IMG/VR virus record: IMGVR_UViG_3300030329_003230
Span: 23,401-87,400 of that record
Length of the DNA: 64,000 nucleotides
Origin: a virus
Strand: one strand, 5' to 3'
In this document: one piece after another, positions 2,638-38,700 of the stretch
Layout of the letters: each line of letters opens with the position of its first letter
Numbering within the stretch: position 1 is the stretch's first letter
Notes under the pieces: generated by a model
The model's input: the letters and a program-made list of their open reading frames with translations, nothing else
Told to the model about the DNA's origin: nothing
The model's database searches: none
Program-made: the position numbers and the translations under genes

Positions 2638-3141
2638 ATGGAAGCTTGGATGAAAGATATACAGTCTAGTTTTAACGATGGAAATGGACTTAAGAGTATA
2701 TTCCATAATGAAAGAAATACATTTCTCCATGAAATCTGGAATCAAAGTATGAATGGATTTGATATCCCAAGGGAAATCCAAGTAGTTATAGATTCTAATA
2801 ATGAATTATTTATGAGTGTAGGAAGTCCTTCTTTTGTATCATTTAATGGACAAGATGAATCCCTTTATGGTAAGAATAATGAAAAGAAGATGAAACTACC
2901 AATCAAGTGTTGGATACATACTCACCCTTTTGGTAAAGCATATTTCAGCGGTACGGACATTTCAACAATCAATACTTGGAAACCACATATGATGTCAGCC
3001 ATAGTTTTAGGGGATAATGAACACCAAGTTTGGCAGAAGGTGAAACCGGATATTGCAAAACATGTTAGATATATTACTGAGACGATTATAGAATTAGGAA
3101 CTAAAAATAAGATAGATAAAATGGTAGAGGAATTGATATGA
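2638..3141 (+). CDS. JAB/MPN+ (JAMM) metalloprotease
   Basis: Upstream E (PREIQV) plus WIHTHPFGKAYFSGTD = HxH-x7-S-xx-D JAMM motif. Confidence 0.85.
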   Translation: MEAWMKDIQSSFNDGNGLKSIFHNERNTFLHEIWNQSMNGFDIPREIQVVIDSNNELFMSVGSPSFVSFNGQDESLYGKNNEKKMKLPIKCWIHTHPFGKAYFSGTDISTINTWKPHMMSAIVLGDNEHQVWQKVKPDIAKHVRYITETIIELGTKNKIDKMVEELI

Positions 3142-3365
3142 AATTAGAAGCATATGGTGAAACGATAGTTTGTAGAGAAGCAAAGACGAAAACAGGTCAT
3201 TTCGTAATGACTGAGAATAATAAAGCAGAAGTCATTTCAGTTGGTGATAAAGTTGAGAATTTGAATGTAGGAGAATTCATCTTCTATGAACCAAATAAGA
3301 AAGAAATTATTGGTGAATTTTTTGTTATTCATTTTCAAAGTGTGTTATGTAAGGTGATGGAATGA
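3138..3365 (+). CDS. groES: Co-chaperonin GroES-like
   Basis: MKLEAYGETIV...AEVISVGDKV...VGEFIFY; directly upstream of GroEL. Confidence 0.75.
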   Translation: MKLEAYGETIVCREAKTKTGHFVMTENNKAEVISVGDKVENLNVGEFIFYEPNKKEIIGEFFVIHFQSVLCKVME

Positions 3366-3438
3366 GTGAAGAAGATTATGAAGTTAGTAAACAAAGACAA
3401 GAAGACAAAGCAGCGAGTTATAATAAGGGGGAATAAGA

Positions 3439-10650: not shown

Positions 10651-11071
10651 AGGGATTATTGTTGCGTTAGCAAATCCTGAGATATCAATAGAGAAAGATG
10701 ACAAACAATCTATCGGTTATAGAATACGATTGAGAATTCATTTTAGGGCTATGAATGAAGATTTCATTTTAATACTAAAAGAAACATTAGAAGAACACGG
10801 TATAGATACTTATTATAGAAATAGAGAAAAAGAAACTAGACCTTACCCTTTACTTAGAATAACTAAGGTAGATAACATGTTTAATTTATTGAAGTTAATT
10901 CCTAAGAACTTAGAGTGGAATAGAAACTTTTCAAGTTTTTTAGAAGTATTAACCATAGTATCAAACAAGCACCATTTGGTGCAAAAAGGATTCGATAGAA
11001 TAGTAGAAATTAAAGAGGAGGCGAGCGGTTGGCGTTGGTGTCGATGGGAAATAAAGAAAGACCTATATTGA
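10628..11071 (+). CDS. Degenerate single-domain LAGLIDADG-fold protein
   Basis: QLEGIIVALAN helix, then ISIEK...GYRIRLRIHF and C-terminal HLVQKGFDRIVEIK, typical of I-CreI-like enzymes; no catalytic acidic residue in the helix. Confidence 0.55.
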   Translation: MFTKEQLEGIIVALANPEISIEKDDKQSIGYRIRLRIHFRAMNEDFILILKETLEEHGIDTYYRNREKETRPYPLLRITKVDNMFNLLKLIPKNLEWNRNFSSFLEVLTIVSNKHHLVQKGFDRIVEIKEEASGWRWCRWEIKKDLY

Positions 11072-11880
11072 TAACTGGAAAAACCGGCACAGGTAAAACC
11101 ACTATGGCTAAATCTTTAGTTAATGATAATCATATTATGTATTATGCTAATGAAATAGAAGATAGAGATTGGAAATCCATAGAGCAAGATATCGTTATTG
11201 AGGAAGTACATTACAAGCCTAAAAAAGATATTATCATGAACATAATACGTCACTGTAAAACTACTATTGTATTAACTTCTAATAATGAAAAGGACGTACC
11301 TGCTGACATTAAGAATTCATGTAAATTAAGAAGGGCAGGAACTGTCCCTCATTCTTTAGAAGAGATTAAGAAAATAGCACCAAGGAGTCAAAATCCTAAA
11401 AATAAAGATATGAGTGTATTTGAGTTAGTTCAAGATTATTTGAAGAACACTAATAGAGATGAAGTTGCTAGTAATCTGAAAGAAAACAAACCAGCAGATG
11501 TTCAGATAATGACTTGGTTAGGTATGAATCTTAATCCAAATAAATTAGCATTCGTTGATGGTAGAGTCAAAAGAAGATGGTCACAGAATTACTTCTATGA
11601 ATTATTATCTTACTGCCATGATGGTAGAATGCATTCTAAAATTAATTATCCGAAAAGAGGAGCATATTCCAAAGTACCAACTATATTGAGGAAATTGAAA
11701 ATAAAACCAAACCAAGGTTATTTGTTACCTCAGTTATTACAAGACGAAGATTTTGAGGGATGGGCAAAGAAGAGACTAAGAAGCGATGAAAGTAGAGTGA
11801 TAGGTATGAAAGATAGAAAGAAGAAAAGAAACGCACCAATTACACCAGATAGAACTTTGAAATTAGAAGGATGGTTTTAG
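11029..11880 (+). CDS. Clamp loader large-subunit-like AAA+ protein
   Basis: Walker A GKTGTGKT, IVIEEV Walker B, VLTSN; adjacent to RFC small; C-terminal LEGWF is PIP-like. Confidence 0.7.
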   Translation: MALVSMGNKERPILITGKTGTGKTTMAKSLVNDNHIMYYANEIEDRDWKSIEQDIVIEEVHYKPKKDIIMNIIRHCKTTIVLTSNNEKDVPADIKNSCKLRRAGTVPHSLEEIKKIAPRSQNPKNKDMSVFELVQDYLKNTNRDEVASNLKENKPADVQIMTWLGMNLNPNKLAFVDGRVKRRWSQNYFYELLSYCHDGRMHSKINYPKRGAYSKVPTILRKLKIKPNQGYLLPQLLQDEDFEGWAKKRLRSDESRVIGMKDRKKKRNAPITPDRTLKLEGWF

Positions 11881-12841: not shown

Positions 12842-14068
12842 ATGGAAGAACAAATGAAAGAAGAAATAGAAAAATATGCTGAAGTTATTGGCATTACGGT
12901 TGAGGATGCTTCAAGCATCTTTGATGGTATTGTCAAAGATAATAGTTTGGACGTAAGCACTGAAGAGGGACTCTTAGTAGCCCGAAGTGTCTTTAGGTCT
13001 AAATTTGCACAAACTAGAGCACGACTGAAGAAAGAAGAAGGTGGAGAAGAACAAACAACAACTGAATACACTGGCCCTACCTATACTCAAAAGGCAAAAG
13101 GATTCTTTTGGGCTGTAGAAAATGCTACTGATTGGGAAGAAAGAAACAGAAATAGTATTATGGCCGAATACCAAAGAGATGCTGATTCAGTTTTACAGAC
13201 TGGAAAAGCAGCGATAGCAGTTCAGCTATCTGATGGTAGGTATGAAGTTACTCTTGTATTAGATGGAGAAACCAATACTAAAGTTATGGAAAAACTACCA
13301 GAAGTAAGCCCAATGCAAGTTGATGATGACCGCTGGATTATACCAGTCGATAATCGTAAAGCTTGGGGAAGTGGTCAATCAAATCCATCTTATGGTAAAC
13401 CTCTACCCGCTAACCGATGGCAAAGAACTCTAATGTTTATTGGTAGTGTTGGTGATGGAGAACCTCAGAAATACCAGTTACGAGTTAATGGAGAACAAGC
13501 AATAGATTTCCATCCAAGGACTTTTGCTCTGTGTGAATTTGACTGTGTTCCTAATTCTAACAACCCTTCTAACCTTAGTGCAAGAAAGGATGGAAGTACA
13601 GTTAATTCCCTATCTTATTTAGATGAAGAAGTGGATATATTGAACATAGTTCAGGAACTATTAGGAGATAAGATTTCAGCATTAATTGCTCTAGACTCTT
13701 ATCATTCTGATAATTCACATAAGAATTATTCTGAGAGAATTGTAGTTACAGATGGTAATGTTGCTAATATGAATCTACAACCTTATGATAATGGGAACCG
13801 AGTTATCTATCTAAGTGACTTGAATGCAGACTTCGATTATGAAGGAGAAGGTTTCTCTTCAACTGCATGTTGGGTTCCTTCTACTATTGAAATCGATTTT
13901 GGAATCGGCAGCAACATTATTGTTGTTGGTCGTACCTCCCAAAGAGAAGTTGATGGCGAACTATCAAATGTTAGTATCAACGTTCTAGGGTTATATGTTG
14001 TGGATAGACATGGTAGTGCAGATGTTCCTGTACAACCAGAGGAGGACGACGATTACAGTTGGTTCTGA
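12842..14068 (+). CDS. RPA/SSB-like OB-fold protein
   Basis: Position in the replisome cluster, beta-rich C-terminal OB-like segment (FGIGSNIIVVGRT...SINVLG) and an acidic-aromatic tail (EEDDDYSWF). Confidence 0.6.
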   Translation: MEEQMKEEIEKYAEVIGITVEDASSIFDGIVKDNSLDVSTEEGLLVARSVFRSKFAQTRARLKKEEGGEEQTTTEYTGPTYTQKAKGFFWAVENATDWEERNRNSIMAEYQRDADSVLQTGKAAIAVQLSDGRYEVTLVLDGETNTKVMEKLPEVSPMQVDDDRWIIPVDNRKAWGSGQSNPSYGKPLPANRWQRTLMFIGSVGDGEPQKYQLRVNGEQAIDFHPRTFALCEFDCVPNSNNPSNLSARKDGSTVNSLSYLDEEVDILNIVQELLGDKISALIALDSYHSDNSHKNYSERIVVTDGNVANMNLQPYDNGNRVIYLSDLNADFDYEGEGFSSTACWVPSTIEIDFGIGSNIIVVGRTSQREVDGELSNVSINVLGLYVVDRHGSADVPVQPEEDDDYSWF

Positions 14069-15220: not shown

Positions 15221-16000
15221 ATGGAAATAGAAGTAAATAAAAAACAAATAGTTGAAGCATTGAAAAATGTAGAAATGAGAGGAAAGTGGGCATCGTCCAG
15301 TGGTTTATCTTCAAAGTCTTTAGGAAATTATATTTATTTTAAATTAGAAGATAATCATTTATTGTTGATTAATTCTGATGAATCTACAACTGTTATAGAA
15401 TCACTATCTGTTGATTCTGAAGATGAAGGTTCTTTCGTTTTAGATATTGAAACTTTAAAGAAGTATTTGACTAAAATGAATGATACGATTACATTTGAAA
15501 TTGGCGATACAATCGTAATGAAATCAGATGGTAAAAGAGCAACAATGCCTATTGTTATTGAACACCCGTATCACGGTAGAATTGGTAGATTTGTTTCACA
15601 GTGGCCAAACCTTTCCTTTGAAGAGGAGTTAGAAAATATACCTAATGTTGGTTCAATGAATCTAACTTGTGCTATACAGATGACAGGAGAACAACTGTTT
15701 GATGCACTTGACGCTTGTGAAATTGTTAACAATGGAGTCTACAAAATTGATTATGTAGAAGAAGATGAGTTAAGTGAATCTAAGTGTGTTATATCCTCTG
15801 AAGAAATCATCTCATCTTATCGGGAAGAGATTGAATATTTATCCTCAATTGGGGAATCTTCCACGGTTCTTTTCAGTGGACCATTACACCGATTCTTCAG
15901 TAAGAAAGACACTATCAATGTCTTCATTGGAGATGACCAACCAATAATTATGATTAGTAATAATAGCGCATTGATACGTGCTCCAAGATTGAATATTTAA
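15221..16000 (+). CDS. pcn: DNA sliding clamp (PCNA-like)
   Basis: 259 aa acidic, two-domain clamp pattern (EGSFVLDIETLKKYL; INVFIGDDQPIIM...IRAPR); context of RFC and PolB. Confidence 0.75.
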   Translation: MEIEVNKKQIVEALKNVEMRGKWASSSGLSSKSLGNYIYFKLEDNHLLLINSDESTTVIESLSVDSEDEGSFVLDIETLKKYLTKMNDTITFEIGDTIVMKSDGKRATMPIVIEHPYHGRIGRFVSQWPNLSFEEELENIPNVGSMNLTCAIQMTGEQLFDALDACEIVNNGVYKIDYVEEDELSESKCVISSEEIISSYREEIEYLSSIGESSTVLFSGPLHRFFSKKDTINVFIGDDQPIIMISNNSALIRAPRLNI

Positions 16001-17264: not shown

Positions 17265-18932
17265 ATGGGAATATCAATGATTATATCTTGGATAGATAAA
17301 GACAAATCCATCAAAATAAGATGGAGAGATGAAGATAATAATCGTAAAGAGAAGAGTATAAACGATTTTGAACCATACTTTTTTATCCGTTCTATTGATA
17401 AAAGGCCAGAAACTTACAAGACTAAACATTACATTGGTCAAGGTAAATCAGTAAAACAGACGGGTTTTTTCAAATATAAAACTGGAAAGTATTACAATTT
17501 GAATAAAGAATCATTAACTAAAGTGTTCTACTCTCATCCTAAAGATGCAAAGAGTGCAAGAAATAACTTTTCTGCTACTTGGGAAGGAGATGTTCCTATT
17601 CTCCGTAGATATTGTGTTGACGAATTAAAGGCGGTTCCTGAATATGAATTGCGTAAATGGTATTGGGATATGGAATGGCTACCGGATGAACATGAACACG
17701 GTGGAGCAATTACTGCCATTAGTGTATATGATAACTATACTAATAAAATCAAATTATATTGGTGGAGCCATTGGCACGATAAGTCAAACACAATTATGAG
17801 AAGATTTAATTCAGAAAAAACAATGCTTGAGTCCTTCGTAAAAGATATGCAAAAGCAAGACCCTGATATGTTAATTGCTTGGTGGGGATTACAGTCTGAC
17901 GTTCCTAAATTAATTCAAAGATTATTTGATAATGGTATTGACCCAAGAGGACTTTCTCCCTATAAAGAAGTGAAGGGTGTAGGTTTTAACCATGTTAGTA
18001 AGTTAGATTACAGCGGAATTGAACAACCCATAAAAGGTAGATTATGTCTTAACTTAGATTTAGCATTTGAAAGACAATGGATGGATGCTCAAAGGGGAAC
18101 TCTACCTTCAACATCATTAGAATACTGTGCAAGTGTTTCTGTAGGTGAAGGTAAAAAGAAAGAGTCTAAATTTAAAGATAGAAATGAATTCTTTATGAAA
18201 GCGTGGGAAGAAGATACAACTAATTATCTTGAATACTGTATGCAAGATTCAGAATTACTTTATCGAATAGATGAGGAAATGGGATTAAGTGAAGGAGTAT
18301 TAGCAATTCAGAAACTAGTTAAAACACCCTTTGAAGATTGTTTCTTTGTTAGTCACATGGGAAGTACATATTTCATGAGAAACGCATGGTGGAAAGCCCC
18401 AACTGGGAAACATGCTGAAAAGAAAGAATATGATGGAGCATTAATCTATAATCCTCTTGACGAGGGAACTAATGGGTTACATACTAATGTAGCCGCTTTT
18501 GATTTCGCTTCTCTTTACCCATCGTGTATTCTTGCAAGGAATATATCTTGGGAAACTAAGAGTGAAACAGAAACAGAATTTGCTGTTAACATAAGAACAC
18601 CTAGAGACTTTTCAGATGTCACCCAAGAAGATTGGAAATACTATAAGACGGATGAGTTAGGTCTTTTACCAAATGCTATAGCTACTTTAAAGCCATTAAG
18701 GAAAGAATATAAAATTAAAATGTTAGAGGCTCTAAAATCAGATAATAAGAAAGACTACATTAAATGGAATTCAATGCAAATGGCAACAAAGCGACTATTA
18801 GCTTCTTTTTATGGAGTAGTTGCTTTACAGGGTTTTGGATGGTATGACGTGGATTTGGCTGCAAGTATAACAGCAAGTGCGAGAGAAGCAATTAGAGAAG
18901 CCGCATTTAAAGTGAGGGAGTTATCAGTATGA
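17265..18932 (+). CDS. polB: Split family-B DNA polymerase, N-terminal part (3'-5' exonuclease, motifs A and B)
   Basis: ExoI WDMEW, ExoIII YCMQD, DFASLYPS, KRLLASFYG; ends before motif C. Probable start at 17277. Confidence 0.9.
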   Translation: MGISMIISWIDKDKSIKIRWRDEDNNRKEKSINDFEPYFFIRSIDKRPETYKTKHYIGQGKSVKQTGFFKYKTGKYYNLNKESLTKVFYSHPKDAKSARNNFSATWEGDVPILRRYCVDELKAVPEYELRKWYWDMEWLPDEHEHGGAITAISVYDNYTNKIKLYWWSHWHDKSNTIMRRFNSEKTMLESFVKDMQKQDPDMLIAWWGLQSDVPKLIQRLFDNGIDPRGLSPYKEVKGVGFNHVSKLDYSGIEQPIKGRLCLNLDLAFERQWMDAQRGTLPSTSLEYCASVSVGEGKKKESKFKDRNEFFMKAWEEDTTNYLEYCMQDSELLYRIDEEMGLSEGVLAIQKLVKTPFEDCFFVSHMGSTYFMRNAWWKAPTGKHAEKKEYDGALIYNPLDEGTNGLHTNVAAFDFASLYPSCILARNISWETKSETETEFAVNIRTPRDFSDVTQEDWKYYKTDELGLLPNAIATLKPLRKEYKIKMLEALKSDNKKDYIKWNSMQMATKRLLASFYGVVALQGFGWYDVDLAASITASAREAIREAAFKVRELSV

Positions 18933-19054
18933 AAAGAGGCGAAAGAAAAGACGGTAGCGTTGAAAAACACTGCGGAATTCGTATAGCGTCTAAGTGGAAT
19001 TACTGCCCGATGTGTGGTAAGAAAAAAGAAAAAGAGGTGATTAAATGGGTATAA
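18929..19054 (+). CDS. 41-aa Zn-finger microprotein inside the polB split
   Basis: MKRGERKDGSVEKHCGIRIASKWNYCPMCGKK...; ATGA overlap with the polB-N stop. Confidence 0.55.
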   Translation: MKRGERKDGSVEKHCGIRIASKWNYCPMCGKKKEKEVIKWV

Positions 19055-19085
19055 AATATAAAATAATTACAAAGGTGATAGCATA

Positions 19086-19175
19086 ATGAAATTTCATATT
19101 GTTAGTTTGTTAATTATAATAATTAGTGCTATATCTATTCTTTGGGCTTGGTGGAAAGGGAGAATGGGGGATTAA
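19086..19175 (+). CDS. 29-aa membrane peptide inside the polB split
   Basis: GGTGA SD; MKFHIVSLLIIIISAISILWAWWKGRMGD. Confidence 0.5.
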   Translation: MKFHIVSLLIIIISAISILWAWWKGRMGD

Positions 19176-19319
19176 ATGTTAGTTAAATGTCAAGAGTGTT
19201 CAACTCAATTTAGTATTAATATGTGGTCAACTATGAAACATCTATGTGGTAAGTGTTACCTTGAATATAAAAAGGAAATAAGAGAAGGCAAAAGGAATAG
19301 ATTAGGGAAGATGATATAA
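19176..19319 (+). CDS. 47-aa Zn-finger microprotein inside the polB split
   Basis: MLVKCQECSTQF...LCGKCY...; its TAA overlaps the ATG of polB-C (TAATG). Confidence 0.55.
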   Translation: MLVKCQECSTQFSINMWSTMKHLCGKCYLEYKKEIREGKRNRLGKMI

Positions 19320-20245
19320 TGGACGTAGTTTATGCACATACAGATTCCCTTTATGTCCCTATACCATCAATAGAAGTTGCTCAAGATGTTCAAAAAATAT
19401 TGAATAAACACATACAAGAAGTAGTGTTTCCTAATATTATGAATTTAGAATCTCATCCTATGGATTTAGAATTCGAAAAATACTATTCTGTATTAGGAGT
19501 AGGAGCAACAAGAAATAGAAATGCTGGTTACATTAATTGGAAAGATGGAGTATATCTTGCTGAACCTGAGTTCTTCGCTACAGGGTTCTCCGTTAAGAGA
19601 ATAGCTGAATCCAAATTAGCGAAAGAGGTACAGAAGAAAACCTTGGAGATGTGGATTAATCAAAAAACAGAACAAGAGATTGTTACCTTTGTTAAGAAAA
19701 AATATAATGATGTTCTTAAAGGTAGAATAGATAAATTAAACTTAGTTAAAAGAAGTAGAGTTAAAGAAAATAGAATGACTCTAAAATGCAGGTGTAGAAA
19801 GAAATACAATGTAGATTATGTTAGAAAATTGTTGAGTGTATTACCTGAATCCTTATGTGAAAAGGATAATTGTAATAGTAAATTAATCTCTTGTACCACT
19901 GTAGAAGATAAAAGACCCTCTTTCGGTGGAGGGTTTGCTGGTATGTTATATTATAATGAGCACATTAATCCTCAACAAAAATTAGATGATTCGTTTTACC
20001 ACATTAAGTGTAAATTTGGTATTAACCAAAAACAGACTTTTACTAATTGGAATGGTAAAGAGAATAAAGCTGGATATATAGCGGTTAGAAATTTAGAAGA
20101 ATTAGAACCATTTGAGCCAGATTGGCCATTCTTAGCAGAAGCAGAGGTTCTTAAAAAAGTGAAACCTATATTCGAAGCGATGGAATGGGATATATCTCAA
20201 ATAAAAATAGATGAGAGTCAAACAAGTTTAGGAGATTGGTTTTAA
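19319..20245 (+). CDS. polB: Split family-B DNA polymerase, C-terminal part (motif C, thumb, PIP box)
   Basis: Starts MDVVYAHTDSLYV (motif C variant), LEFEK, Cys cluster in the thumb, C-terminal QTSLGDWF PIP box. Confidence 0.88.
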   Translation: MDVVYAHTDSLYVPIPSIEVAQDVQKILNKHIQEVVFPNIMNLESHPMDLEFEKYYSVLGVGATRNRNAGYINWKDGVYLAEPEFFATGFSVKRIAESKLAKEVQKKTLEMWINQKTEQEIVTFVKKKYNDVLKGRIDKLNLVKRSRVKENRMTLKCRCRKKYNVDYVRKLLSVLPESLCEKDNCNSKLISCTTVEDKRPSFGGGFAGMLYYNEHINPQQKLDDSFYHIKCKFGINQKQTFTNWNGKENKAGYIAVRNLEELEPFEPDWPFLAEAEVLKKVKPIFEAMEWDISQIKIDESQTSLGDWF

Positions 20246-21090
20246 TGGAATTTACATATCAATGGAACCCTGAATGGGAAGAAGACCCATCAATGCCTCA
20301 ATTAAAGGTTACAAAATCATCTTTGAATACGTTTGAATTCTGTAGAAAACAATATCAATTTAGCTACATAGAACGTATGAAGAGTGAACCTAACGCTGCA
20401 ATGGCAAGAGGTTCAGCAGTTCACGATTCCTATGAAAACTTCTACAATGAGTTTGACCTTAGAAAAGCAGAAAACTTAGACCAAAATAGCCTTTTTCAAT
20501 ATTGTATAGGTCTATTTCCCATAGATGATTACGGTGAAGTTTACCAGACTATGGCAGCGTTTGAAACTGAGAGGTTCTTCTCTTCAAAGGTAGAGAAATC
20601 TTTAGACAATTATCTACCAGTTGGTAATGAGGTAGCGTGCAATGCTAAACTCTTAATTAAGAAAGACATAAATCCGAAATTCGAATTAAAAAGAGATTAT
20701 ACAGTTCATATTCAAGGAATAATAGATAGAATTTTTAGAGAAGGTGATGGATACATCCCTGTAGAATTAAAGACAGGAGTTTGGAAAGATAGAAAACAAA
20801 CTCATATGAGAAATGAAATGGCTTTTTACAAAGTTTTGATGGATGCAGACCCTGATTGTAATTTTGACCCAGTAACTCATTGGGCTTGGTATTATCCAGA
20901 TTCAAATTATTTTCAAGTAGAAGAAGTGAAGAAAAGAAACCAAACTAATATTCCTAAGAGAATTTCTAAGTTGATTTATGCTTATGAACAAGGAATATTT
21001 CCAGCTTCTTACTTCCCAAATAAGTGTCAATTTTGTTCCTTCATAGGAATATGCGACTCTGCTCAACAAGCGGAACTTTGGTCGTGGTAA
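20236..21090 (+). CDS. Cas4/RecB-like PD-(D/E)xK exonuclease
   Basis: N-terminal FC, RGSAVH, GIIDRI...VELKTG, C-terminal CQFC...IC Fe-S ligands. Confidence 0.85.
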   Translation: MVLMEFTYQWNPEWEEDPSMPQLKVTKSSLNTFEFCRKQYQFSYIERMKSEPNAAMARGSAVHDSYENFYNEFDLRKAENLDQNSLFQYCIGLFPIDDYGEVYQTMAAFETERFFSSKVEKSLDNYLPVGNEVACNAKLLIKKDINPKFELKRDYTVHIQGIIDRIFREGDGYIPVELKTGVWKDRKQTHMRNEMAFYKVLMDADPDCNFDPVTHWAWYYPDSNYFQVEEVKKRNQTNIPKRISKLIYAYEQGIFPASYFPNKCQFCSFIGICDSAQQAELWSW

Positions 21091-21870: not shown

Positions 21871-22013
21871 CCCTTGCTAGATTAGCAATTAAATGTACTA
21901 TTTGTTCAAACATATTTCCTATAATGAAAGTTTACAGGGAAAAAGTAGGAATTGATGGACACTTCTGTTCAAAAGAATGCTGGGATGAAGGTGTTAAAAA
22001 TGAAATTCCCTAG
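21867..22013 (+). CDS. Unannotated 48-aa TRASH/FCS-type Zn finger
   Basis: CTIC...HFCSKECW; ATGA-coupled to the previous ORF. Confidence 0.55.
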   Translation: MTLARLAIKCTICSNIFPIMKVYREKVGIDGHFCSKECWDEGVKNEIP

Positions 22014-23082
22014 AGAGGTTTGGCCAAGCGCAAACAAACAAACTAATTCCTTTGCAAGTAAAAGAAAATTAGTTAAGAGCCAGAAAGAGTTCAATGATTT
22101 CGTTAAATTATATAATGGAAAAATGAACTGTTTTACATCAGTATATGATTACAAAACTTATACTGAAAAACAAGCTATAGTTAACACAGTTATTCTAGAT
22201 AGAGTATTTTTAGATTTTGATGCTCATCACGGAGAAGTAAACAAAGCAACTGGAGCCCAATTAATTAACCCTGAAGAAATAGGAAAATGTTTAGAAGATT
22301 TATTTTTAGTTTTAGATTATTTACATTCTAAGGATTATAAATACGATATGTCATTTTCAGGTAGAGGGTTTCACCTATATGTTTACGGAGAACCAATAAA
22401 GGATATTCGTAGATTAACAGCCTTTTTTAATCAAATAAAGAAATATACTGTTAATGGTACATTAGATAGTTCTGCTATTTCCAGTAGAAGATTAAGACGT
22501 ATTCGTAACACTATGAATATGAAAGCATCATATGGAAAGGGATGTTATTATTGCATACCTCTATCTTATTCTGATTTAGAAGAGAAAACATTCATTGATG
22601 ATTTATTGGATATGGCTAAAAAACCTAACTTTACTTCTATTAATTATAGAGGGAACAAGTTAGTATCTTGGCCAGAAGTACCACCTATTGAAGAATCTGA
22701 AATAGAAGCCGAAGTAATAAATGTAGGAAACTTACCTATGCCACCTTGTATGCATAGTGCTATAATGATTGAAAACCCAACGGACCAATCAAGAGCATAC
22801 TTAGTTAGTTGGTATAAGGATTTATTATTATGGACTGACCCAAATGTGGGATTTATGGATAGTAAAGCTACACCTAGTTTTGATTCCCGCAATAAAATTA
22901 CAAATAAAATAGTAGCAGAGATTAAACACTTACACGAAGAACATGATGTTTGGTTAGATTTTAAAGAAGAAGTCACTAAATACCGAGTTAAATATATTGT
23001 AGATGGGAACTATAGTTTCCCTAATTGTGATAAACTGATATCTAACGGATATTGTATAGGAAAATGTTGGAGGATGAAATAA
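22000..23082 (+). CDS. priS: Archaeo-eukaryotic primase, PriS fused to a PriL-like Fe-S C-terminal domain
   Basis: FLDFDAH, FSGRGFH; C-terminal PPCM...FPNC...YCIGKC. Start set to the ATG at 22000 (MKFPRE). Confidence 0.85.
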   Translation: MKFPREVWPSANKQTNSFASKRKLVKSQKEFNDFVKLYNGKMNCFTSVYDYKTYTEKQAIVNTVILDRVFLDFDAHHGEVNKATGAQLINPEEIGKCLEDLFLVLDYLHSKDYKYDMSFSGRGFHLYVYGEPIKDIRRLTAFFNQIKKYTVNGTLDSSAISSRRLRRIRNTMNMKASYGKGCYYCIPLSYSDLEEKTFIDDLLDMAKKPNFTSINYRGNKLVSWPEVPPIEESEIEAEVINVGNLPMPPCMHSAIMIENPTDQSRAYLVSWYKDLLLWTDPNVGFMDSKATPSFDSRNKITNKIVAEIKHLHEEHDVWLDFKEEVTKYRVKYIVDGNYSFPNCDKLISNGYCIGKCWRMK

Positions 23083-23184
23083 ATGAAAGAAGGAAGACAA
23101 ATGACGTTATATGAATTTGGATTAAAAATGAAAGGACAAACTAGCTTATTGGATTATGGATTAAAGTTGGATGAAGAAGAATGA
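23083..23184 (+). CDS. Unannotated 33-aa microprotein with two tandem PIP-like boxes
   Basis: MKEGRQMTLYEFGLKMKGQTSLLDYGLKLDEEE; GGAGG upstream; ATGA overlap with the XPF gene. Confidence 0.6.
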   Translation: MKEGRQMTLYEFGLKMKGQTSLLDYGLKLDEEE

Positions 23185-23876
23185 CTCTAATAATAGATAG
23201 TAGAGAATCCTCTGATTTATCTGAAGAAGTAGAAGATAAAGCCAGAAAGATGAATATTATCACCAAAAAACAATGGATAGAAGTAGGAGACTATGTTATT
23301 GGTAATGTCTGTTTTGAGGCAAAATCTACTCATGATTTCTTATCTTCTATAGTAAGTAAAAGATTGTGGACTCAATTAGATAACATGGATAGGTGTTATG
23401 AAAATAACATAGTAATAATTTATGGTAGTCTACAGCACGCACTTACTTACACCAAATATTCTGCTAAATACAATAACATGCCAAGAGAAAGAAAAATACA
23501 ACTACTAACAAACAATTTCTATGGTGGTATTAGTAGAATAATTTTAGATTCAGATATTAAACCAGTTTGGGTTAAAGACGCATATGCAGCAGCATCAATT
23601 ATTTGCAGCGTTGCTAAAATGCAACCTGTAGATAGACCACCAATTAAGCCTCATATTTTCAAGAGGCAAACCACTGATGACATCAGAATAAACATGTTAA
23701 CGAGCATAAAAAGTGTTAGTGAAAAGAAAGCAAAGACACTTTTAAAACACTACGGGTCACTTATGGAAATAGGTGATTGCGACAAAAGGGAACTATGTTC
23801 TTTAGAGGGCATAGGAGACACAACAGCAGATAGAATATTATCTGTTTTCAATTCCGAAAAGGAGGTTAAACAATGA
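23181..23876 (+). CDS. ERCC4/XPF (Hef-like) structure-specific nuclease
   Basis: IIDSRE, VGDY, EAKSTHD, and C-terminal tandem HhH (LEGIGDTTA). Confidence 0.88.
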   Translation: MTLIIDSRESSDLSEEVEDKARKMNIITKKQWIEVGDYVIGNVCFEAKSTHDFLSSIVSKRLWTQLDNMDRCYENNIVIIYGSLQHALTYTKYSAKYNNMPRERKIQLLTNNFYGGISRIILDSDIKPVWVKDAYAAASIICSVAKMQPVDRPPIKPHIFKRQTTDDIRINMLTSIKSVSEKKAKTLLKHYGSLMEIGDCDKRELCSLEGIGDTTADRILSVFNSEKEVKQ

Positions 23877-25656: not shown

Positions 25657-26256
25657 ATGCCAAATGTTATGGCGATTGACTTAGAAACTAAGAATTTATC
25701 ATCAGATATTGGTGGTTGGGGTAATACCCATATGTTTCTAGTTTCTACAGTAACAACTTGGAACGGTAATACTGGTACTATTTATGTTGATGAACCAGTA
25801 TCTGATTCTTTTGTTAAGTCAGGGGTCCAGACTAAAACTCTTAACGAATTAAAATTTGATTTAGATGAACACTTCAAAAAAGGCGGATTACTATTAGGTC
25901 ATAACATTATATCTTTTGATTTACCAGTACTAAGAGATGCTATGGATATTTATTGTATTAGAAAATATATGACCCATAAACAATATATCGACACTAGCCA
26001 ATATTTACTAAAAGAAAGGGGAGAAAGATACGCACTAAACAATTTAGTTGACCATACTTTAGGAAGACAAAAGACTCTACACAGTATGGACGCACCCCGA
26101 TTATGGAAAGACGGAGACTATGATGCTGTAGTGGACTATTGTTTAAAAGACTCCCAATTAGTATATGATTTATGGAAATATGGTCAGCAAGAGGGAACAG
26201 TAAAGGCTTTTAATATAGACCAAGAGGAGGAAATAGAGATGGAGGTGAATTGGTGA
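25657..26256 (+). CDS. DEDD 3'-5' exonuclease (RNase H-like)
   Basis: AIDLET, GHNIISFD, YCLKD. Confidence 0.85.
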   Translation: MPNVMAIDLETKNLSSDIGGWGNTHMFLVSTVTTWNGNTGTIYVDEPVSDSFVKSGVQTKTLNELKFDLDEHFKKGGLLLGHNIISFDLPVLRDAMDIYCIRKYMTHKQYIDTSQYLLKERGERYALNNLVDHTLGRQKTLHSMDAPRLWKDGDYDAVVDYCLKDSQLVYDLWKYGQQEGTVKAFNIDQEEEIEMEVNW

Positions 26257-29428: not shown

Positions 29429-29791
29429 TTATTTCACCTGCACCACAATTGTAAATTCTAAAATATCAGTTGCCGTTATTGGCCCCACACCATCAAAATC
29501 AATTCTGTTTAACATATTACCACTACTATCAAAAATTCCTACTTCTGTTATTGTATATCCAGTTAACGCCGAAGCACTTCCTAAGAAACTCGCCTTGAAT
29601 TCCACTCCTGTATCATTTGCTAATGTTGATGAAATATTACTTGTTACCGTTGGTACTCCATTTGTTGTTCTTGGTGAATCTAATTCATTTGCGCTTGGAT
29701 TAGTACTATCTGTTCCTGTTCCTACATCCATACTGGCAAAATTAGTTTTAATTAACGTTGCTATCTGTTTCTTTCCTTCTTCTGTTATCAT
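29429..29791 (-). CDS. Small tail-tip/fibre-attachment protein
   Basis: MITEEGK...VGTG...ITEVGIFDSSGNMLNR pattern common in tail-collar/baseplate proteins. Confidence 0.6.
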   Translation of the reverse strand: MITEEGKKQIATLIKTNFASMDVGTGTDSTNPSANELDSPRTTNGVPTVTSNISSTLANDTGVEFKASFLGSASALTGYTITEVGIFDSSGNMLNRIDFDGVGPITATDILEFTIVVQVK

Positions 29792-32700
29792 TCAAACGCC
29801 TTCCCTTTAGTTAAATCTAAATCCAACATTAATGTCTTATTGGATAGTGTTGCTGTTCCTCCACTCAAAGTAAATCCTAATGTGGTACTGAATCCTAATA
29901 ATGCCCCCGAAGAGAAACCTAAATTTGTACTTGCGTCTGCTGGACAATACAATAAGTCTCCTTTAGTTAAAGTGACACTGAGAGGAGTAACAAGAGTAAT
30001 CTGAGTAGAACTTACTGATTCTATAACCCCTAAGTTAGTACCAGCGTTTGTGTAGAGGTTCGCTCCAGCAAGGAAAGTGCTACTAATATCAATAGTTGTT
30101 GAAATTTTATCACCACTAGATACAGTAGCAGCAACGCCGGTATAATTCATATCAGCACTAGTAGTTATTTTATGAACTTGTAATGTTACTTCTCCTATCT
30201 CTAATTCATCAAATAAATCGATATCTTGGTTAAGAGTTTCTGCTATATCTTCTTTGAAAGTTCTATCTAATCGTTTAATTTCAGTAATATTTTCAGCCAA
30301 CAATTGACCCAATCCCTTTGAATATTTACTCAAAGTTAATTTGACAACTCCATCTATAGAATAGTCAATTCCAGTTATCATATAATTCGAACGAGGAATA
30401 TTTTCAGATGGATAATGAACAACTACACTATCTGCAATTTTAACTAATTCAGTACCTCTTCGGTCAGTTTCTATTTTTAATTCTATATTTTCAGAAGAAT
30501 GTAATCTCAATAATTTTTGAGCCAATTGTTCTGCTTGAACTTTATCAGAAATTGTTCTATCTATTCTTTCTAATGTCCTTTTACCTTTTAATTTGATACT
30601 TTCTAAATCTCTTTTTCTGACTTTCAAATCTTTACCATATACCACTACGTCATTGTATAACTCAAAGGTGTTTTTATTTTTGGAAGCCAACATAATATTT
30701 TGAGTATCTTTATTCATTTCATCTATTTCGATAGATGTATTACGTTCAAAATCTTTAGAAGAAGATACTTCTATAGTGTTATTATCAACATATAATTCTA
30801 AGTCTTTGTTACCCAATATAGAACTACAGGCTGAAAATAAGTTAGATTCTCCACCAAGGAATTCAGGAGCCATAAAATAACTTTTAGGGGTTTCTGTCAC
30901 TGAAGTTATATCAGACCTTTTAGTATAATCTATTTCTTCTTTCTTTAAAATATTATTAACTATATCTTCTATCTCTGGAGCAACTGTTACTCCTACTCCT
31001 ATTGATGCGCTTTTTATATCACTCAGAGTAATTCTATCTTTAGTTGTAATTTCAAATATTTCCCCAATAGACAATATCCCTGCCGCCTCTTGCATATTAG
31101 TGAAAGATAATTCTGTACTGTTAGTGGACGCTTTAACTAACATAGTATCTTCCACTCTTATTTCACCATCTGTTTTTAACACATTATACTGAGTATTATT
31201 AGTAAATGGTTTACCAGAACCAAATAAGTTTCCTTTATCTCTACAAACAACATAATCGGAATTATCTGTATCTACATCTAAAGTAACATACATTGATAAT
31301 AACCCTTCATTGAATGGACTATCAATAGAATTATTTGTATTATTAGAATTAAACGAATTATTTATTTGTCCATACATCTCATTAGAGTATGGTTTTTTAC
31401 TCGTTTTTCTACTCATTACATATGTTTCAATATTATTAGGAGTAAAATTATATGTGCAAATTTCAGCGGGTTTCATTATTCTAAAGTGAGTATTTTTAGG
31501 AATATTAACATCATCAGTTAGACTAGAATCATATGCGCCATCAATATAAATTATATGTCGAATAATGTTATCTCTACCTTGAGTACCAGAACCAGTGGGT
31601 TCTTCAGCCTGACTTTTAACCTGAGTTTCGTGAGATACAACATAATATATTTTATCTGGAGTTATTCCTTCTACATTCCTAAAGAAATTACTACTAACAT
31701 CAGTTCCTATGTTCTGTGATATTGTTTCTTTAGTAGAAATTTTAGCAACTGTGGTATCATTCGCATTATTAGAAAAAGCAACATCTACAGTCAAAGCAGT
31801 ATCACTTGTTATACCTGTAATAATTCTAGTTTCTCCACTAACAGTTATTGAATCCCCTACAGATAATTCTGTTAAAAATTGTGTTCCTACTCCAGTTACT
31901 GAAGTAGAAGCAGCAGGGTCTATACTTCCAGTTAATGAATCTGAAGTAGTTCCGCTTAAATTTTTATCAAATAATGCTTCACTAGACTTACTTTCTCCAC
32001 TGTAAGAACCTGCTTCTGATACTAAATACATTCCAGTTAAATCTACAAAATTTAAGAAACCGTTACCTGCGGCTTGCGGTGGTTCACTAGTGTCAAAGGT
32101 ATCAATTTCTATTCTAACTAATTTCTTACCATCTGGAGAATTTTTCCATTCTACATCGGTAATATTTCCAGTAGAATAATTCTTAGAAATGTAATCATAT
32201 AAGAAATTAAATTTTATTTTATTTATGGCTGTGTAAGATTTTTGAGTAATAGTAGAATCATTAGCAGTAGTTGCGGAATAAGAATCATTGTATTTCCCTA
32301 ATGTTAAGGGAGTAGTTAACGTAGAAAATTCAGTGGAAAAGAATCCCATATCTAACATAGAAATATTACTCATTCTAAGTGGATAATATGGGAATTTATT
32401 ACTTGCGAATGTATTAAAATCAGTACCTTCTCTAAATCTATTACCTGATTTTGGATTATAATAATAAAAACTGTAACAAGGCATTACACTACCACTTAAC
32501 ATATTAGGGGTAGGATTAACAGCGGGCAAGTCATTATCAGTTACACTTGTATCTAAAGATAATACAAATACTGGACAGGCAACATATGTTAATGAACTAC
32601 CAGAGTAACCAGTACCTCCATCAGTGGCAAAATTACTAACGCCACTATAAATAGCATTATTAATTGGGTCTAATCTAGTAATGGCTCCACCGGATGCAGT

Positions 32701-35700
32701 AACTCTATACACAGCATTGAATTTAGCATTATTAGTTCTACCACCACTACCAGTAAAATCACTTTCTAAAATTAAAGCAACAACATCATTAGTAACATAA
32801 CCAGTACCACCCGCAGTTATACTAGTAATAGCACTACCCATAGCACTAGAAGTAGTAGTAATCCTTGCCATCTTACCGTATTGGGGGATAGTTCCACCAC
32901 TTGCGCTTCTTGTTGATTGAGTAGGAGTGGCATCACAAGTTTTTATTCCTGTAATAGAATGCCAAACTTGAGAATTATCAGTACCTGCACCAGTTGAAAT
33001 AGGATACAAGAAATTTATTTTCATTCCGTCGATTAAAGGAATATAATCGCTACCTGAATATCCGTTCTGTCTAGGTAAAAATATGAAATCATTACCAGTT
33101 ATTCTAATCATAGTATGAGTTAAATCCTGTGCGTTTGCAGATAAGTTAGGATAAGCCTGACCCTCTATGCCAGTTATGTAATCATTTTGTGCTCCGGTAA
33201 CTGTCGCTACAATTTTACTCATATTAGTTATAGGTAAAGTAGAACCTTGCATTAGTGTAAAGAAATTATTACTTAAATTTCTATAAATTGATTGGTTAGT
33301 TCCTAAATCTTCTAAAATTAATTGAATAGTTCCATCATAAGGTCTAGTGGGTATCATCGGTAAACCGTTAGTTGTACTTGCTCTAGTTGAGAAATCTGGA
33401 TGTTGAAAACTGTGAGAAATTAAACCCTTTCTAATTAAAGATGGTTCTTGTAATCTTCTTATTTCTTCATAAATACTGTAAGGCTTACTTAATGCCGCTA
33501 CTCCTATGTGATTATAATTTCTAAACCCAGTCTTTCCATGAAAGTAGTAATTATTGTAAGGAGAAGCAATCCATCTTTGGGTAGTAGTGCTACCAACGTG
33601 ACTATTACCACTTAATTCTACATATTGGTGTAATAATGGACTAAATTTATTAGATACTGCATCTAATTCTTTGTATTTATCATCTGAATTTAACCAACTG
33701 AAATCGTTTATTTTAGATGGGTCGCCGTTATCACCAAATAAAGAAAGGGCTAATGTAGCAGTATCAGTACTACTTGTAGCAGCATCTAAATCTGGATACA
33801 CTGGAGATTGTGGATTTTTAAGAGCGTTAGTATTTCTAGTGATTAATTTAGTACTAACCCTACTGCCGCCACTTGAGGCTAAAGATGCCATATATACTGG
33901 CCCAATGTAACTAGTAGCGTGGAAAGTTCCAGAAGCCCCACCCTCATGTAATTCTATAAAATGCCCCGAAGCACCAGAAATAGGGTGAGTAGTAACATAA
34001 TTATTCGCTTTACCAATTAATTCTCCAAATCTAGTAAATAAATAATGCCCATCAATACTACCACTCGCTTCAGGGTCTGCATCTAAAGTAAGATATCCCA
34101 TCCTTGTGCCTGAAACGCTATTTGTATAAGCAGTAATTTGGAAATTATTCAAATTAGTACCATCAATATTATCAGGTAAATCTATTGGTTGATTCAAATA
34201 ATAATGTTTGATATCGCTATTATAGAGGCTTTCCTTTACAGTTGGTGGGTTTTCACCATCAATTGGGTTAAATGTAAAATCATAAGTTGCTTCTATTAAT
34301 CTCATTAATCCGAATCTTTTTATTTGGTTTGGGGTTATAGATGCCGAATTAATATCTAGGGTTTGTTGAGAAGTATCCAAATATTCATCTCTTGGGATTG
34401 TTCCTAAATATTTATCTTGTTTTAATTCACCTACTTTTTCTGGACTATGTGATTTTAAAATCAAAGAGTAATCAGTAAATACACTATCAGATAAAAACCC
34501 GATGTGATTATCTCTTCTCATAGATTCAGGTAAAATATCAGAAATTGAAAATAAGAAATAAGTTGGTGATTTTGGGTCAGATACTTGTAGCATATCTCTT
34601 ATTTCTAATATAGAATTGTATCCGTGTCTTGGTAGATGGGGGCTTGCATCACCACTAGTTTCATCATAATGGAAAGAACCAACAGAAAAAGTATTGCTAC
34701 CGGGTATTCCCGCTTTAGGTATCATATAGATTGGAGCCATTAAATCATCATCTTGTAAAAGAGAATTAGAACCTGTAGTAGCAGTATTTGTTTCAGCATA
34801 GAATTTCTCATAATCTCCGAAATTACTACCTAAAATACCAAAAGTTCCTCTTTCGTAGGGGGCTGGATATAAATTTTTAATCATTAAAGAGTTATGAACG
34901 TAATTTTTTGTATAATCTGTTCTTAATTCTTTAGTTAAAGACTCTTCAATAGTAATTCCACCCCTATTTCCGGGGTAAAATTTTACTAATTGGGCTACAC
35001 CTTTAACTTTAGAAGAAGTATTTGAGTAATTTAAATTATGAGAACTTTCAATATAATTTATTTTTTTAATCGGATTTCTATTGAGCGTTCCAGATTTAAA
35101 TCTATTTAAATTAGTATATTTGAAATATAACCCACCATAGGGAAAAAAGGTAAGAGGTACTGGAATTTTATAAGCATTAGAAATATTAGAGCCTTTTATT
35201 GAATCAATAGGAGCGATTATACCCCCAACAGGTAAACCTTGAGTGTTAATTAAATATAAGTGGTCTGTATTATTTTCACCTAACACCTGAATACTAGTGA
35301 CTCCTGACATTGAATCTTGGATATTCCTATCCATTTCTATTACATAATAAACTACAGAAGTATCGGCTGTAGCATCTAAAATGTGAGTCTCAAAAAATCT
35401 TTTTCCTGTACCTAAATACACTCCAGAAGTATTGTAAATTGGACCTAATAACCTCTTTAAAGTGGCATCACTCATAGCAGAAGGTAAAAAACCAGTGATT
35501 CTATTACCTTTACAATAAGCATGAATTGTAGTTAAACTATCATCAGCAAAAACAGAATTACTAGTTTCATTAGGGTTTTGGTCTACTCTTCCTAAAATGA
35601 CGGGGAAAGTTGGGGCTACTCTAATTGTAGTGCTAGCATCAGAATTAGGATTAAATGATACTATAGTATATTCTGATAAACTATTAGGGGAATAAGAGTT

Positions 35701-38700
35701 TACACCATCAAAGGAAGCACCACTTTCATCTCCCAATTTACAATAATATTTGGTTTCATTTTTATGAATAGAAGAAACATCATTTATGTAAAATCCTCTA
35801 GTTTTAGTATCTAACGATTTAAGTGAAGTGGAATTATTATTATATGATGTTCCTACTAAATCTTCACCAATAGCAGTATTTGCTGAACTAGTTCCATGTA
35901 TTCCCATAGTTATACTATTACCAGAAGTAAATACTACTCCCTTACCCGATGCTCCTCTTAAATTACTAAATGTATTTTCAGCACCAACATCTGATGAAAG
36001 TGCTTTACCTAAAAACCAATTATTAGGATAACTTTCAGTACTAGTATTATCATAAGGTTTGATGTATAAAACAGGACCAGATTCAACATTGATTGTTATT
36101 TCAGCAGAAGCAGTTGCTGCTTGAGAAATAGTAATAGTATTAGCATCTGTTATACCTGTAATAGTAGTTCCTGAAGGTATTCCACTTCCACTAATATTCA
36201 TTCCTACTTTTAATTCAGTAGTCGCATTTATTGCGATGCTATCTATAGTAGTATTACTATTAGTATCCGCTATAAAGGAACCCATTACTGTTAATGCGCC
36301 GGTTTTTAATTCTAAATTAGCAAGATTTTGCTTCGCACATTCCCCAAGGAATTTATTATCTGAAGTGAATAACCACCCATAATGAGTAGCTGTTCCTCCT
36401 CCAGTTGCAAACTCAAATTGTTTATCTCCAATATTAATAACTACATTTGGTGCTAATTTTGAGCCGCACTCTACTAAATTCATTACAGGACCTTGATTTG
36501 AATAAATATAATCTTCAGAATGAAGATAATTCTTGTTGACAACTGGACCTAATAATTTAGCCATTTTATCCATTCCTAAGAAAGTTAAAATTGGCTGTCT
36601 GTCTTGTGTTTCCGTATGAATTTCCTCTACTTCTCCTTCATGAACCGCCCTCTGAATTTTACATTGTCCTGAGAAGAAATCAAGATAATTACCAGCACCA
36701 GTAAACTGAGAATAAAGAACTTTATTTTCGTTCTGGAAATACACTACCCCGTTAGCCCTATCACCATAATCAATTAATAGTCTATCACCGGAATATTCTG
36801 CATCTCGTAATACCATCTCTAAATTATATATCCTCGCTCTAGTTTTAGATGTAGTAGTGTCATTTACTTTGTAAGTTGTAACAGCATGACTGACATCTAA
36901 ATCTGTATATGTTAAATCTGTATCAATTTCAAAATCTACTATTAAATTCTGACAAACACTAGACCATCTTCTTCTATATGCTGTAGCGGCAGTATAATTT
37001 GCCTGTAAATTACCTGAAGCATAAGCACCTAAAGCGTTAACTGCTCTATAAGAACCAACAGTGATAGTTTGGGAACCGCCTGAAGGCGCAGTAATAGCAG
37101 ATGGAATGTAAAAATAATCACCTAATTTGAATGATTCAAAAGTAGAACCATTCCTCAAAAGTGCTCTTAAATCTTGACCGTCTTTTAATTTAGTAACAGT
37201 TAGAGTACTACCACCACTACTACCCGCAAAACTTCCAAAAATAGCCGTGTCTTTTTCTTTAGTTATTTCAAGTTCAAATAAATCTTGATACACTTTGAAA
37301 GTGTCCTGTTCCTGAATTTTACTTGCTAAAATTTTCTTATGGTCTAACGCTTGAACTTTACATAAATTACCTACAGAGCCATACCCCTTTGATACACTTA
37401 TATCTAAAACTGTATTTACTATGTTAGTCTTAGTTGGTGAAATTTCATAATGTAGATAACGAGTAGGCCCATTGAAATTACCACTAGCGGCGGCACCACC
37501 AGAAGCATATAACCCATTACTACTTCTTTCACCATTAACCATAAAGGAGTGAGAAGAAGTTAAAGAACTAGTGTAAGAAGTAACTTTACCTCTTCCTCCC
37601 CCATCCATAATATTATTATTATATCTATCACTATCATATAATACATCAATTAACTGTGCTTGAGTATTATAAGGTCCAGTATCAACAATCTCTCTTTCGA
37701 AATCACGCCTTGTTCTAAATAACAAAGAAGAATGAGTAGGAGTTCCCCCTATTTCTTTAGATTGATTTAATTGGTATTTAGTTCCAGCATTTAATACATT
37801 CTTTTCATCTAATCTACTATTATAGAAATAAGTTGTGGGTCTAGAAAATTCTGTATATTTTAAATGTCTATTCTCAGAAGTATCTTGTATTAAACCATAA
37901 GCAACTGCTACTGTTTTCGTATCAGTGGTTAATGGACCTTTAAAAATTCTAAATTTAGTGTTAACTTCAATCTCATTTTCCATCGCTGGCTCAAATTCAA
38001 AGGCATCTCCACTATCATCAAAAGATAATAATTTAGTTATTTTAGCAAGATGATGTTTCTTAGCGTCATCGGAATGGACTAAAACAAAATAATCATTAGT
38101 AGTAATATCCATATTGCCATTATGTTCGTAGCCTGTCTCTATTGTGGTACTACCAGACCCTAATTTTATACCAATGTTAGCGGCGTTTTCCTGCCTATAA
38201 CAATGTATTCTATTTTCTCTTGTGGTACTAAGATTAGAAAAATGTAAAGTTATTGTATCTCCAGCGGTTGCATCATAAGGAGCATATACGTTCAATTGTT
38301 CATCTTCATCTTTAGTATTACTTACACCATTAACAGAAGCATCAGAAAGGTCAGCATCAAAAGTAAAGGTTTGATTAGCATTTGTGGCCGTTGTATCAGC
38401 ACTTAAAGTAAAACAAGTAGCGTTGTTAATAGAAGCAATGGTTGCTCCTGCCGGTACTCCTGTCCCTGTTACACTCATACCTACAGCCAATCTTGAAGTT
38501 GAACCCATTGTAATGTGACGTACATTATTAGTAGAACCATCAGATAATCCAGAGGTATGATTAGTATTACAAGTATCATCTGTAAATGAATTATCTATAC
38601 TTATTTCGTAGGAAGCAATACCTCCATTTGAAGGAGTAATTCCATTATCATAGAATACAGGATTTTTACTACTATTTGTATTACAATTAACTGGTGAAGA

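Follow-up and report, generated by a model that had tools for sequence, protein, structure and literature searches.

The gap between the genes for a primase and an XPF-type nuclease in a virus genome is filled exactly by an open reading frame of 33 codons, the product of which is little more than two copies of a motif resembling the PCNA-interacting peptide (PIP) box, and this raises the questions of whether the frame is a gene and, if so, what a protein of this kind would do. Our analysis used a window of 64,000 nucleotides, corresponding to bases 23401-87400 of an 87.4-kb virus genome. The + strand of the window encodes ThiF- and JAB-like proteins, a thermosome-type chaperonin, an ATP-dependent ligase, two RFC-like ATPases, a Cas4-like PD-(D/E)XK nuclease, the primase, the XPF-type nuclease and an RNase-H-superfamily protein (a weak Pfam match), and the - strand carries a caudoviral structural module with portal, prohead protease, major capsid protein and tail tube. 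Magroviruses are viruses of Marine Group II archaea, and a split polymerase is a trait of their group B (PMC5434244). The magrovirus gene set is present here, in the form of a split family-B polymerase (PolB), sliding clamp, RFC, primase, ATP-dependent ligase, chaperonin and caudoviral structural module, and by this predicted gene content the record is a magrovirus, that is, a head-tailed virus of Marine Group II archaea; an MCM helicase was not identified by Pfam in this genome. Other features of the window include a cluster of a ThiF-like E1, the JAB-like protein and the thermosome-type chaperonin at the start of the replication strand (1847..5013, +), three small ORFs of 41, 29 and 47 aa between the two PolB halves (18929..19319, +), two of them Cys-rich and Zn-ribbon-like, a 2,992-aa ORF in the tail region (29788..38766, -), and a second ATP-dependent ligase-like protein of 827 aa (55384..57867, -; DNA_ligase_A_M, 2e-28), which lies on the structural-module strand, apart from the first ligase (505 aa, 8221..9738).

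The features of the locus are listed in Table 1. As originally predicted, the micro-ORF occupies the whole space between its neighbours: the primase TAA (23080-23082) is followed without a gap by the micro-gene ATG, which is in frame with the primase, and at the other end the TGA shares bases with the XPF start codon (ATGA at 23181). A GGAGG or GGAGA sequence is found 6-9 nt 5' of the ATG in 10/10 versions of the micro-gene that were compared. The last codons of the micro-gene (GAGGAA) double, in relatives, as a purine-rich ribosome site for XPF, with the form TGAGGAATAA-n-ATG; the corresponding sequence in the window virus is GAAGAAGAATGA. We considered whether the frame could extend the primase by read-through or a frameshift, and rejected this because the frame relative to the primase stop varies among relatives, each of which has its own ATG and GGAGG/GGAGA. 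The best explanation of this arrangement is that the micro-protein would be translated from its own ribosome site inside a primase-XPF operon. The micro-protein itself, which is neutral to acidic in charge, matched nothing in Pfam or PHROGs; its exact sequence is present in a protein atlas, in which no usable match was obtained.

Table 1. Features of the replication module discussed in the text (window coordinates)
Feature	Position	Strand	Remarks
Viral sliding clamp, 259 aa, two-domain PCNA fold	15221..16000	+	Candidate viral target; PHROG processivity factor, 1.1e-6
Split family-B polymerase (PolB)	17265..18932 and 19319..20245	+	
PolB C-terminal PIP tail, QTSLGDWF	20219..20242	+	Sequence that the boxes mimic
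Primase, archaeo-eukaryotic, with Cys-rich C-terminal domain	21952..23082	+	PHROG primase, 1.8e-9; weak Pfam DNA_primase_lrg (PriL-like, C-terminal region)
Shine-Dalgarno-like site, GGAGG	23069..23073	+	9 nt 5' of micro-gene ATG; formed by Trp-Arg codons of the primase C-terminus
Micro-protein gene	23083..23184	+	33 codons and TGA; translation MKEGRQMTLYEFGLKMKGQTSLLDYGLKLDEEE
Box 1, QMTLYEFG	23098..23121	+	Family hallmark Q-x-T-L-x-[ED]-[FYW]-G, then L/M
Spacer, LKMKG	23122..23136	+	Five residues; pattern [LM]-x-[ILM]-x-G; length invariant wherever two boxes are adjacent
Box 2, QTSLLDYG	23137..23160	+	Canonical box in other lineages
Acidic tail, LKLDEEE	23161..23181	+	C-terminus of micro-protein
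XPF-type nuclease	23181..23876	+	ERCC4 and HhH2 domains

The motifs by themselves make a weak case for a gene, since, of 200 shuffled windows with preserved composition, 17% also contain a loose double motif (on average 0.20 per shuffle, compared with two loose and one strict in the real window), and the evidence beyond chance is conservation. We fetched related loci through XPF, and a homologous micro-ORF lies directly after the primase in 12 of the best 80 of 146 relatives. In one of them (L007) an extra gene separates the micro-gene from XPF, so the micro-gene travels with the end of the primase rather than with XPF; the product of the inserted gene (L007:2520..3000), of about 90 aa, is Cys-rich and Zn-ribbon-like and ends in …DYGLKPIEE. 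Nei-Gojobori counts give a dN/dS ratio (omega) of 0.35 in frame for nine distinct versions of the micro-gene, with 1.15 and 1.05 in the other two frames, and of 0.21 in frame for 22 distinct versions from three virus lineages, with 1.05 and 1.27 out of frame. Over the same eight loci, omega is 0.29 for the peptide core, 0.11 for the last 40 primase codons and 0.14 for the first 40 XPF codons. Within a 20-residue core, Q1, T3, L4, G8, Q14 and D19 are invariant among the 22 versions, in which L4 is encoded by five different Leu codons and L17 by four. Box 1 has invariant Q, T, L and G (22/22), the G being at position 8, and has E at position 6 in 21/22; box 2 has Q and, at position 6, D in 22/22, with L at position 4 in 21/22 and Ile in the remaining version. 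Position 7 is aromatic (F, Y or W) in both boxes of every version. We conclude that the micro-gene is under purifying selection and that 23083..23184 is a genuine gene.

The gene has a restricted distribution among the viruses with a related XPF. The 11 carriers in a tree of 59 distinct XPF rows all belong to a single clade of 14, which is supported at 97/93 and whose remaining three members have a hydrophobic mini-ORF at the same primase-XPF junction; a sister clade of 44 rows is without the PIP micro-gene. Thus, the gene is absent from 48/59 rows, and most related viruses do without it. Unrelated hydrophobic mini-ORFs of about 30-42 aa are found at the same junction in sister clades (L012:2892.., L014:2891.., L032:2901.. 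and L044:2883..); the mini-ORFs at this spot are of two types, …LLVIRLIIWWDSLVAKIRRE and …FYSRFCFYCLGSVAFIVNIF…. The primase-XPF junction looks like a hot spot of mini-gene turnover.

The micro-protein is not confined to this junction. A profile built from ten versions and searched against 1.84 billion representative proteins (E 1e-3 or better) gave 14 matches, 13 of which are stand-alone proteins of 27-52 aa with two or three boxes; the fourteenth, a protein of 585 aa (P0061), was rejected as an unrelated repeat protein, and a fused form of the boxes was not found among the 14. These relatives had already been predicted by several public gene callers, unnamed or as "hypothetical protein", and occur on up to 25 contigs per sequence (Tara, ENA, JGI, NCBI). 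A scan of metagenome loci found 21, of which we inspected 13. We rejected locus L116, whose only motif is partial and sits in an unrelated reading frame. The micro-gene belongs to three virus lineages and is in the replication module in all three. In lineage (i), that of the window (GC 0.31-0.36), the order is primase, micro-gene, XPF. In lineage (ii) (GC 0.37-0.38), an unsplit PolB ending …P[RK][DN]LFG[DS]EENV is followed by the micro-gene, a 122-aa ORF and a PD-(D/E)XK nuclease. In lineage (iii) (GC 0.44-0.45), an unsplit PolB ending …HQPKTYW is followed by a 73-aa Cys-rich ORF, the micro-gene and, further on, a Cas4-like nuclease. These three different contexts suggest that the micro-gene is an independent, movable gene of replication modules. 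The peptide core is recognisable between lineages, with 38% identity over 21 aa (E 4e-6) between the window and the lineage of locus L105, and the box 1 hallmark Q-x-T-L-x-[ED]-[FYW]-G-[LM] is kept in all three. Box 2 ends in [FY]-G in lineage (i), and in lineages (ii) and (iii) it conforms fully to the PIP consensus (QTQLTDFF, QTQLTDFY, QTTLLDFY, QSTIWDWL). We did not find a copy of the micro-protein when we scanned 185,579 species genomes with the peptide alignment. At loci L117 to L120 the micro-gene ATG overlaps the 3' end of the PolB gene, and the PolB C-terminus, …P[RK][DN]LFG[DS]EENV, resembles that of the micro-peptide, …P[DK]LF[GDE]..E; the peptide at these loci could have arisen from, or could mimic, a second, non-PIP motif of the polymerase tail.

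What, then, do the two boxes resemble? The PIP consensus is given as QXXhXXaa (PMC4929162) or Qxx-psi-xx-theta-theta (PMC10087552), with examples that include QTSMTDFY of p21, QVSITGFF of p66 and the archaeal consensus peptide KTTQSTLDSFFK (PMC4929162, PMC10087552). Both repeats of the micro-protein had been predicted to fit Q-x-x-L-x-x-[FY], and they do: Gln at position 1, Leu at position 4 and an aromatic residue at position 7 are present in each. Position 8, where the consensus has a second aromatic residue, is Gly in both, however, so the window's boxes are PIP-like rather than canonical. Compared with the PIP boxes of known clamp clients, they resemble p21 and the archaeal consensus peptide in their T/S at position 3 and acidic position 6, but differ in that the motif is the entire gene product and is duplicated in tandem, rather than being the tail of an enzyme, and in that Gly replaces the second aromatic residue in the window's lineage. 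The resemblance of box 2 to the PolB tail, which had been noticed earlier, holds up under a systematic comparison of the boxes: with a matrix built from 17 distinct 7-mers of the relatives' boxes, leaving out the window's own peptide, the PolB tail (QTSLGDW) ranks 1/41,626 among all 7-mers encoded across the genome in its 307 frames of at least 60 aa, scoring 15.4 bits against 7.2 for the runner-up. The tail of the Cas4-like nuclease (QAELWSW) ranks sixth. PolB tails of relatives have the form Q-[KTRMQ]-x-L-x-[DE]-W-F, mostly with T or S at position 3, and in the window's lineage they always end in WF. Inside the clade of carriers there is a hint, which we do not count as evidence, that the PolB tail co-varies with the boxes. 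Set against these WF-ending tails, the Gly at position 8 of both boxes suggests that the boxes may bind weakly or in some other way. Trp-containing tails that are conserved in relatives also occur on other proteins of the replication module (…LKLEGWF, …DDDYSWF, …QQAELWSW and …EMEVNW, on proteins at 11029..11880, 12842..14068, 20236..21090 and 25657..26256, all +), and these may be further clamp-binding tails in a "tool belt" of the virus.

A clamp to which such motifs might bind is encoded in the same module. The AlphaFold2 model of the predicted viral clamp, built from an alignment of 42 sequences, has a pLDDT of 90.5 and a pTM of 0.88, and its best Foldseek matches are archaeal PCNAs (Haloferax, Pyrococcus, Thermococcus; E about 1e-12, best 6e-13; TM 0.64-0.76). 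Pfam PCNA_N did not match this clamp, and a direct PHROG scan did (phrog_947); both models were blank on three related records (G001-G003), even where a clamp is known to be present, and these blanks are therefore uninformative. A scan of 185,579 species genomes with the clamp alignment found nothing. A virus of the L105 lineage has a clamp at the syntenic position, and a 97%-identical homologue of it (P0081) was modelled with a pLDDT of 88.2 and a clamp fold (TM about 0.7), although the clamps of the window and of the L105 lineage (G001) have no detectable sequence similarity to one another (hhalign probability 0.2; blastp E 3.5). The window clamp and L142:164-970 (-) are syntenic two-domain clamps of two magrovirus lineages, which share a fold without recognisable similarity in sequence. 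Structure models thus indicate that PCNA-fold viral clamps exist in two of the three lineages with the micro-gene.

At about even chances, we favour the reading in which the micro-protein, as a free PIP-box peptide, occupies the PIP pocket of a sliding clamp, the hydrophobic pocket beneath the interdomain connector loop, and competes there with enzymes that carry PIP tails. It would be a free-standing peptide of essentially nothing but two PIP boxes, each reproducing the Q-x-[T/S]-L-x-[D/E]-aromatic core found in the clamp-binding tail of the viral PolB, and by filling the pocket it would keep PIP-tailed enzymes out. We infer clamp binding, the choice of clamp and an inhibitory outcome. The original prediction was of a bivalent competitor that shuts down host replication, or of an adaptor or regulator for the viral clamp and XPF. 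What stands of this is a selected micro-protein with two PIP-like motifs that mimic the PolB tail, located in a replication module together with a viral clamp of predicted PCNA fold; the link to XPF is weak, as another gene can lie between the two (L007) and as two lineages have the micro-gene after PolB with neither XPF nor primase adjacent. Bivalence, in the sense of two pockets filled within one ring, also appears unlikely, given the geometry of the ring, because there are only five residues between the boxes. In the PolD-PCNA complex, the nearest free pocket is at 70 Å (PMC7101311). With a spacer of this length, the two boxes would more likely provide rebinding or two alternative registers on one pocket, or contact two different partners. 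Positive flanking charge raises the affinity of PIP peptides (PMC7101311), which counts against this neutral-to-acidic peptide as a strong binder.

If the micro-protein does bind a clamp, we lean slightly towards host (Poseidoniales) PCNA as the target, rather than the virus's own clamp. Host PCNA would then be taken from host polymerases and nucleases, and the virus would replicate with its own clamp, clamp loader and PolB. The lean towards a shared, conserved target rests on the peptide core being recognisable across lineages, with boxes that remain near-canonical, whereas viral clamps and PolB tails are divergent; indeed, the PolB tails of the three lineages are QTSLGDWF, HQPKTYW and PRDLFGDEENV. 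It is only a slight lean, since even clamps that have diverged strongly keep PIP pockets of conserved structure. Moreover, the peptide tail in lineage (ii), PDLFGGEE, resembles the PolB tail of the same viruses, PRDLFGDEENV, which points back to a viral partner.

Some of the same evidence could be read differently, with the micro-protein as a detachable PIP adaptor that would place one box in the clamp pocket and the other (or, in lineage (ii), the PDLF tail) on a viral enzyme that lacks a PIP box, tethering the enzyme to the clamp in trans. The enzyme might be primase or XPF in the window virus, and PolB in the lineages without a canonical PolB tail. We consider this unlikely, although it would account for several observations. 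The two boxes are differentiated and separately conserved (box 1 with [FYW]-G-[LM]; box 2 with D at position 6 and canonical in the other lineages), the spacer is probably too short for two pockets of one ring, and the micro-gene adjoins enzymes without a PIP box: no PIP-like tail was found on primase or XPF in any clade examined, and the neighbouring PolBs elsewhere end in HQPKTYW or PRDLFGDEENV. There is also precedent for a PIP box with two partners, since the cPIP of Pyrococcus abyssi DP2 binds both PCNA (Kd 49 uM) and primase (4 uM) (PMC7101311; see also PMC8096248). Nonetheless, sister clades that have this PIP-less primase and XPF are without the gene or have a hydrophobic mini-ORF in its place, implying that primase and XPF do not need it, and a PIP-binding site is not known on these viral enzymes.

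The preference of cPIP for primase over PCNA (PMC7101311) raises the alternative possibility that the target is not a clamp but another protein of the replisome, such as the PriL-like C-terminal domain of the adjacent primase, and that the peptide would regulate priming or hand-off, by analogy with the PolD cPIP and Pol-alpha tails that bind primase. The micro-gene is directly 3' of the primase gene in the window's lineage and stays with it in L007, and the primase has a weak PriL-like C-terminal region; but in the two other lineages the micro-gene follows PolB rather than primase, and among all 7-mers of the genome the boxes best match the clamp-binding tail of PolB, leaving this possibility with a small probability. 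It is more improbable still that the frame is a coupling cistron, serving only to deliver ribosomes from primase to XPF and encoding a peptide without function. Such a role would fit the tight packing of stops and starts (TAA-ATG, ATGA), the use of the terminal Glu-Glu codons as the XPF ribosome site, and the presence of other, unrelated mini-ORFs at the same junction in sister clades, but it would leave unexplained the invariant Q, T, L, G, Q and D with their varied codons, the omega of 0.21, the occurrence of the same peptide at other genomic positions, and the match to the PolB tail. Lastly, the idea of a chance ORF in an AT-rich spacer, which the frequency of loose double motifs in shuffled windows might have encouraged, can be dismissed almost outright, as it is refuted by conservation, selection and independent occurrence in three lineages.

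A competing free PIP-box peptide would have implications beyond this locus. PIP boxes are known as enzyme tails or internal motifs, and magroviruses are abundant in the ocean. A selected, movable gene that consists of two or three PIP boxes would show that viruses use the bare motif as a regulator. We suggest tentatively, as a generalisation that is itself rather doubtful, that magroviruses have a family of genes encoding a string of two or three PIP boxes, a minimal "free PIP" peptide that would take over the exchange of clamp clients. If that is true, either host PCNA would be saturated, leaving DNA replication to the viral clamp-polymerase pair alone, or the peptide would be a detachable PIP tail through which enzymes without one gain access to the clamp; it would also be the first natural protein made of tandem clamp-binding motifs only, and would serve directly as a peptide probe for a host that has not been cultivated. 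To our knowledge, Poseidoniales hosts and their viruses are uncultivated, and no protein interaction between virus and host is known for them; a peptide of 27-38 residues would be a directly testable handle on replication control in these viruses. More generally, this case shows how readily a functional gene of some 30 codons can escape notice in viral metagenomes: the relatives described here had been called as genes but never named.

Full-text literature searches on PIP boxes with archaeal virus or virus-encoded, and PCNA, returned no description of a tandem-PIP micro-protein, and those on "tandem PIP" with PCNA returned engineered repeats only. The magrovirus genomics papers that we searched make no mention, in their main texts, of PCNA, of PIP motifs or, where searched, of small proteins; the sliding clamp is mentioned once, as part of a gene set, in PMC5434244. 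None of the closest known systems is a bare tandem motif. One of them is TIP, a 64-aa protein of Thermococcales with a putative N-terminal PIP motif that inhibits the stimulation of PolB and Fen1 by PCNA in vitro (PMC4929162, PMC6204406). As far as those accounts describe it, TIP has in common with the micro-protein that it is a small, stand-alone protein of the archaeal world proposed to block contacts between PCNA and its clients through a PIP-like motif, but it is a cellular protein of twice the length, with a single non-canonical motif at its N-terminus and a further part, described as an amphipathic helix or PH-like, by which the trimer is broken, whereas the micro-protein has no domain beyond its boxes. 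We found no homology to TIP: the peptide-family profile, searched against all PDB chains, among which the TIP-PCNA entry 5da7 is listed, gave two unrelated matches (E 0.1). Two PIP boxes in one short stretch are also found in DP2 of PolD, as iPIP and cPIP, which have different roles and bind the same pocket in a mutually exclusive manner, one of them binding both PCNA and primase (PMC7101311, PMC8096248); in the PolD described there, the boxes are about 40 residues apart within a subunit of 1,270 residues, in contrast to the five residues and free peptide seen here. Viral precedents for engaging a clamp include gp1 of SIRV2, which engages Sulfolobus PCNA3 (PMC5537682), and phage Gp168, which has been captured with the beta-clamp (PDB 7evp). 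With its putative clamp binding, the micro-protein would join them in the class of small virus proteins that bind a host clamp, set apart, going by their descriptions, in that SIRV2 gp1 and Gp168 have folds or domains of their own rather than a bare tandem linear motif.
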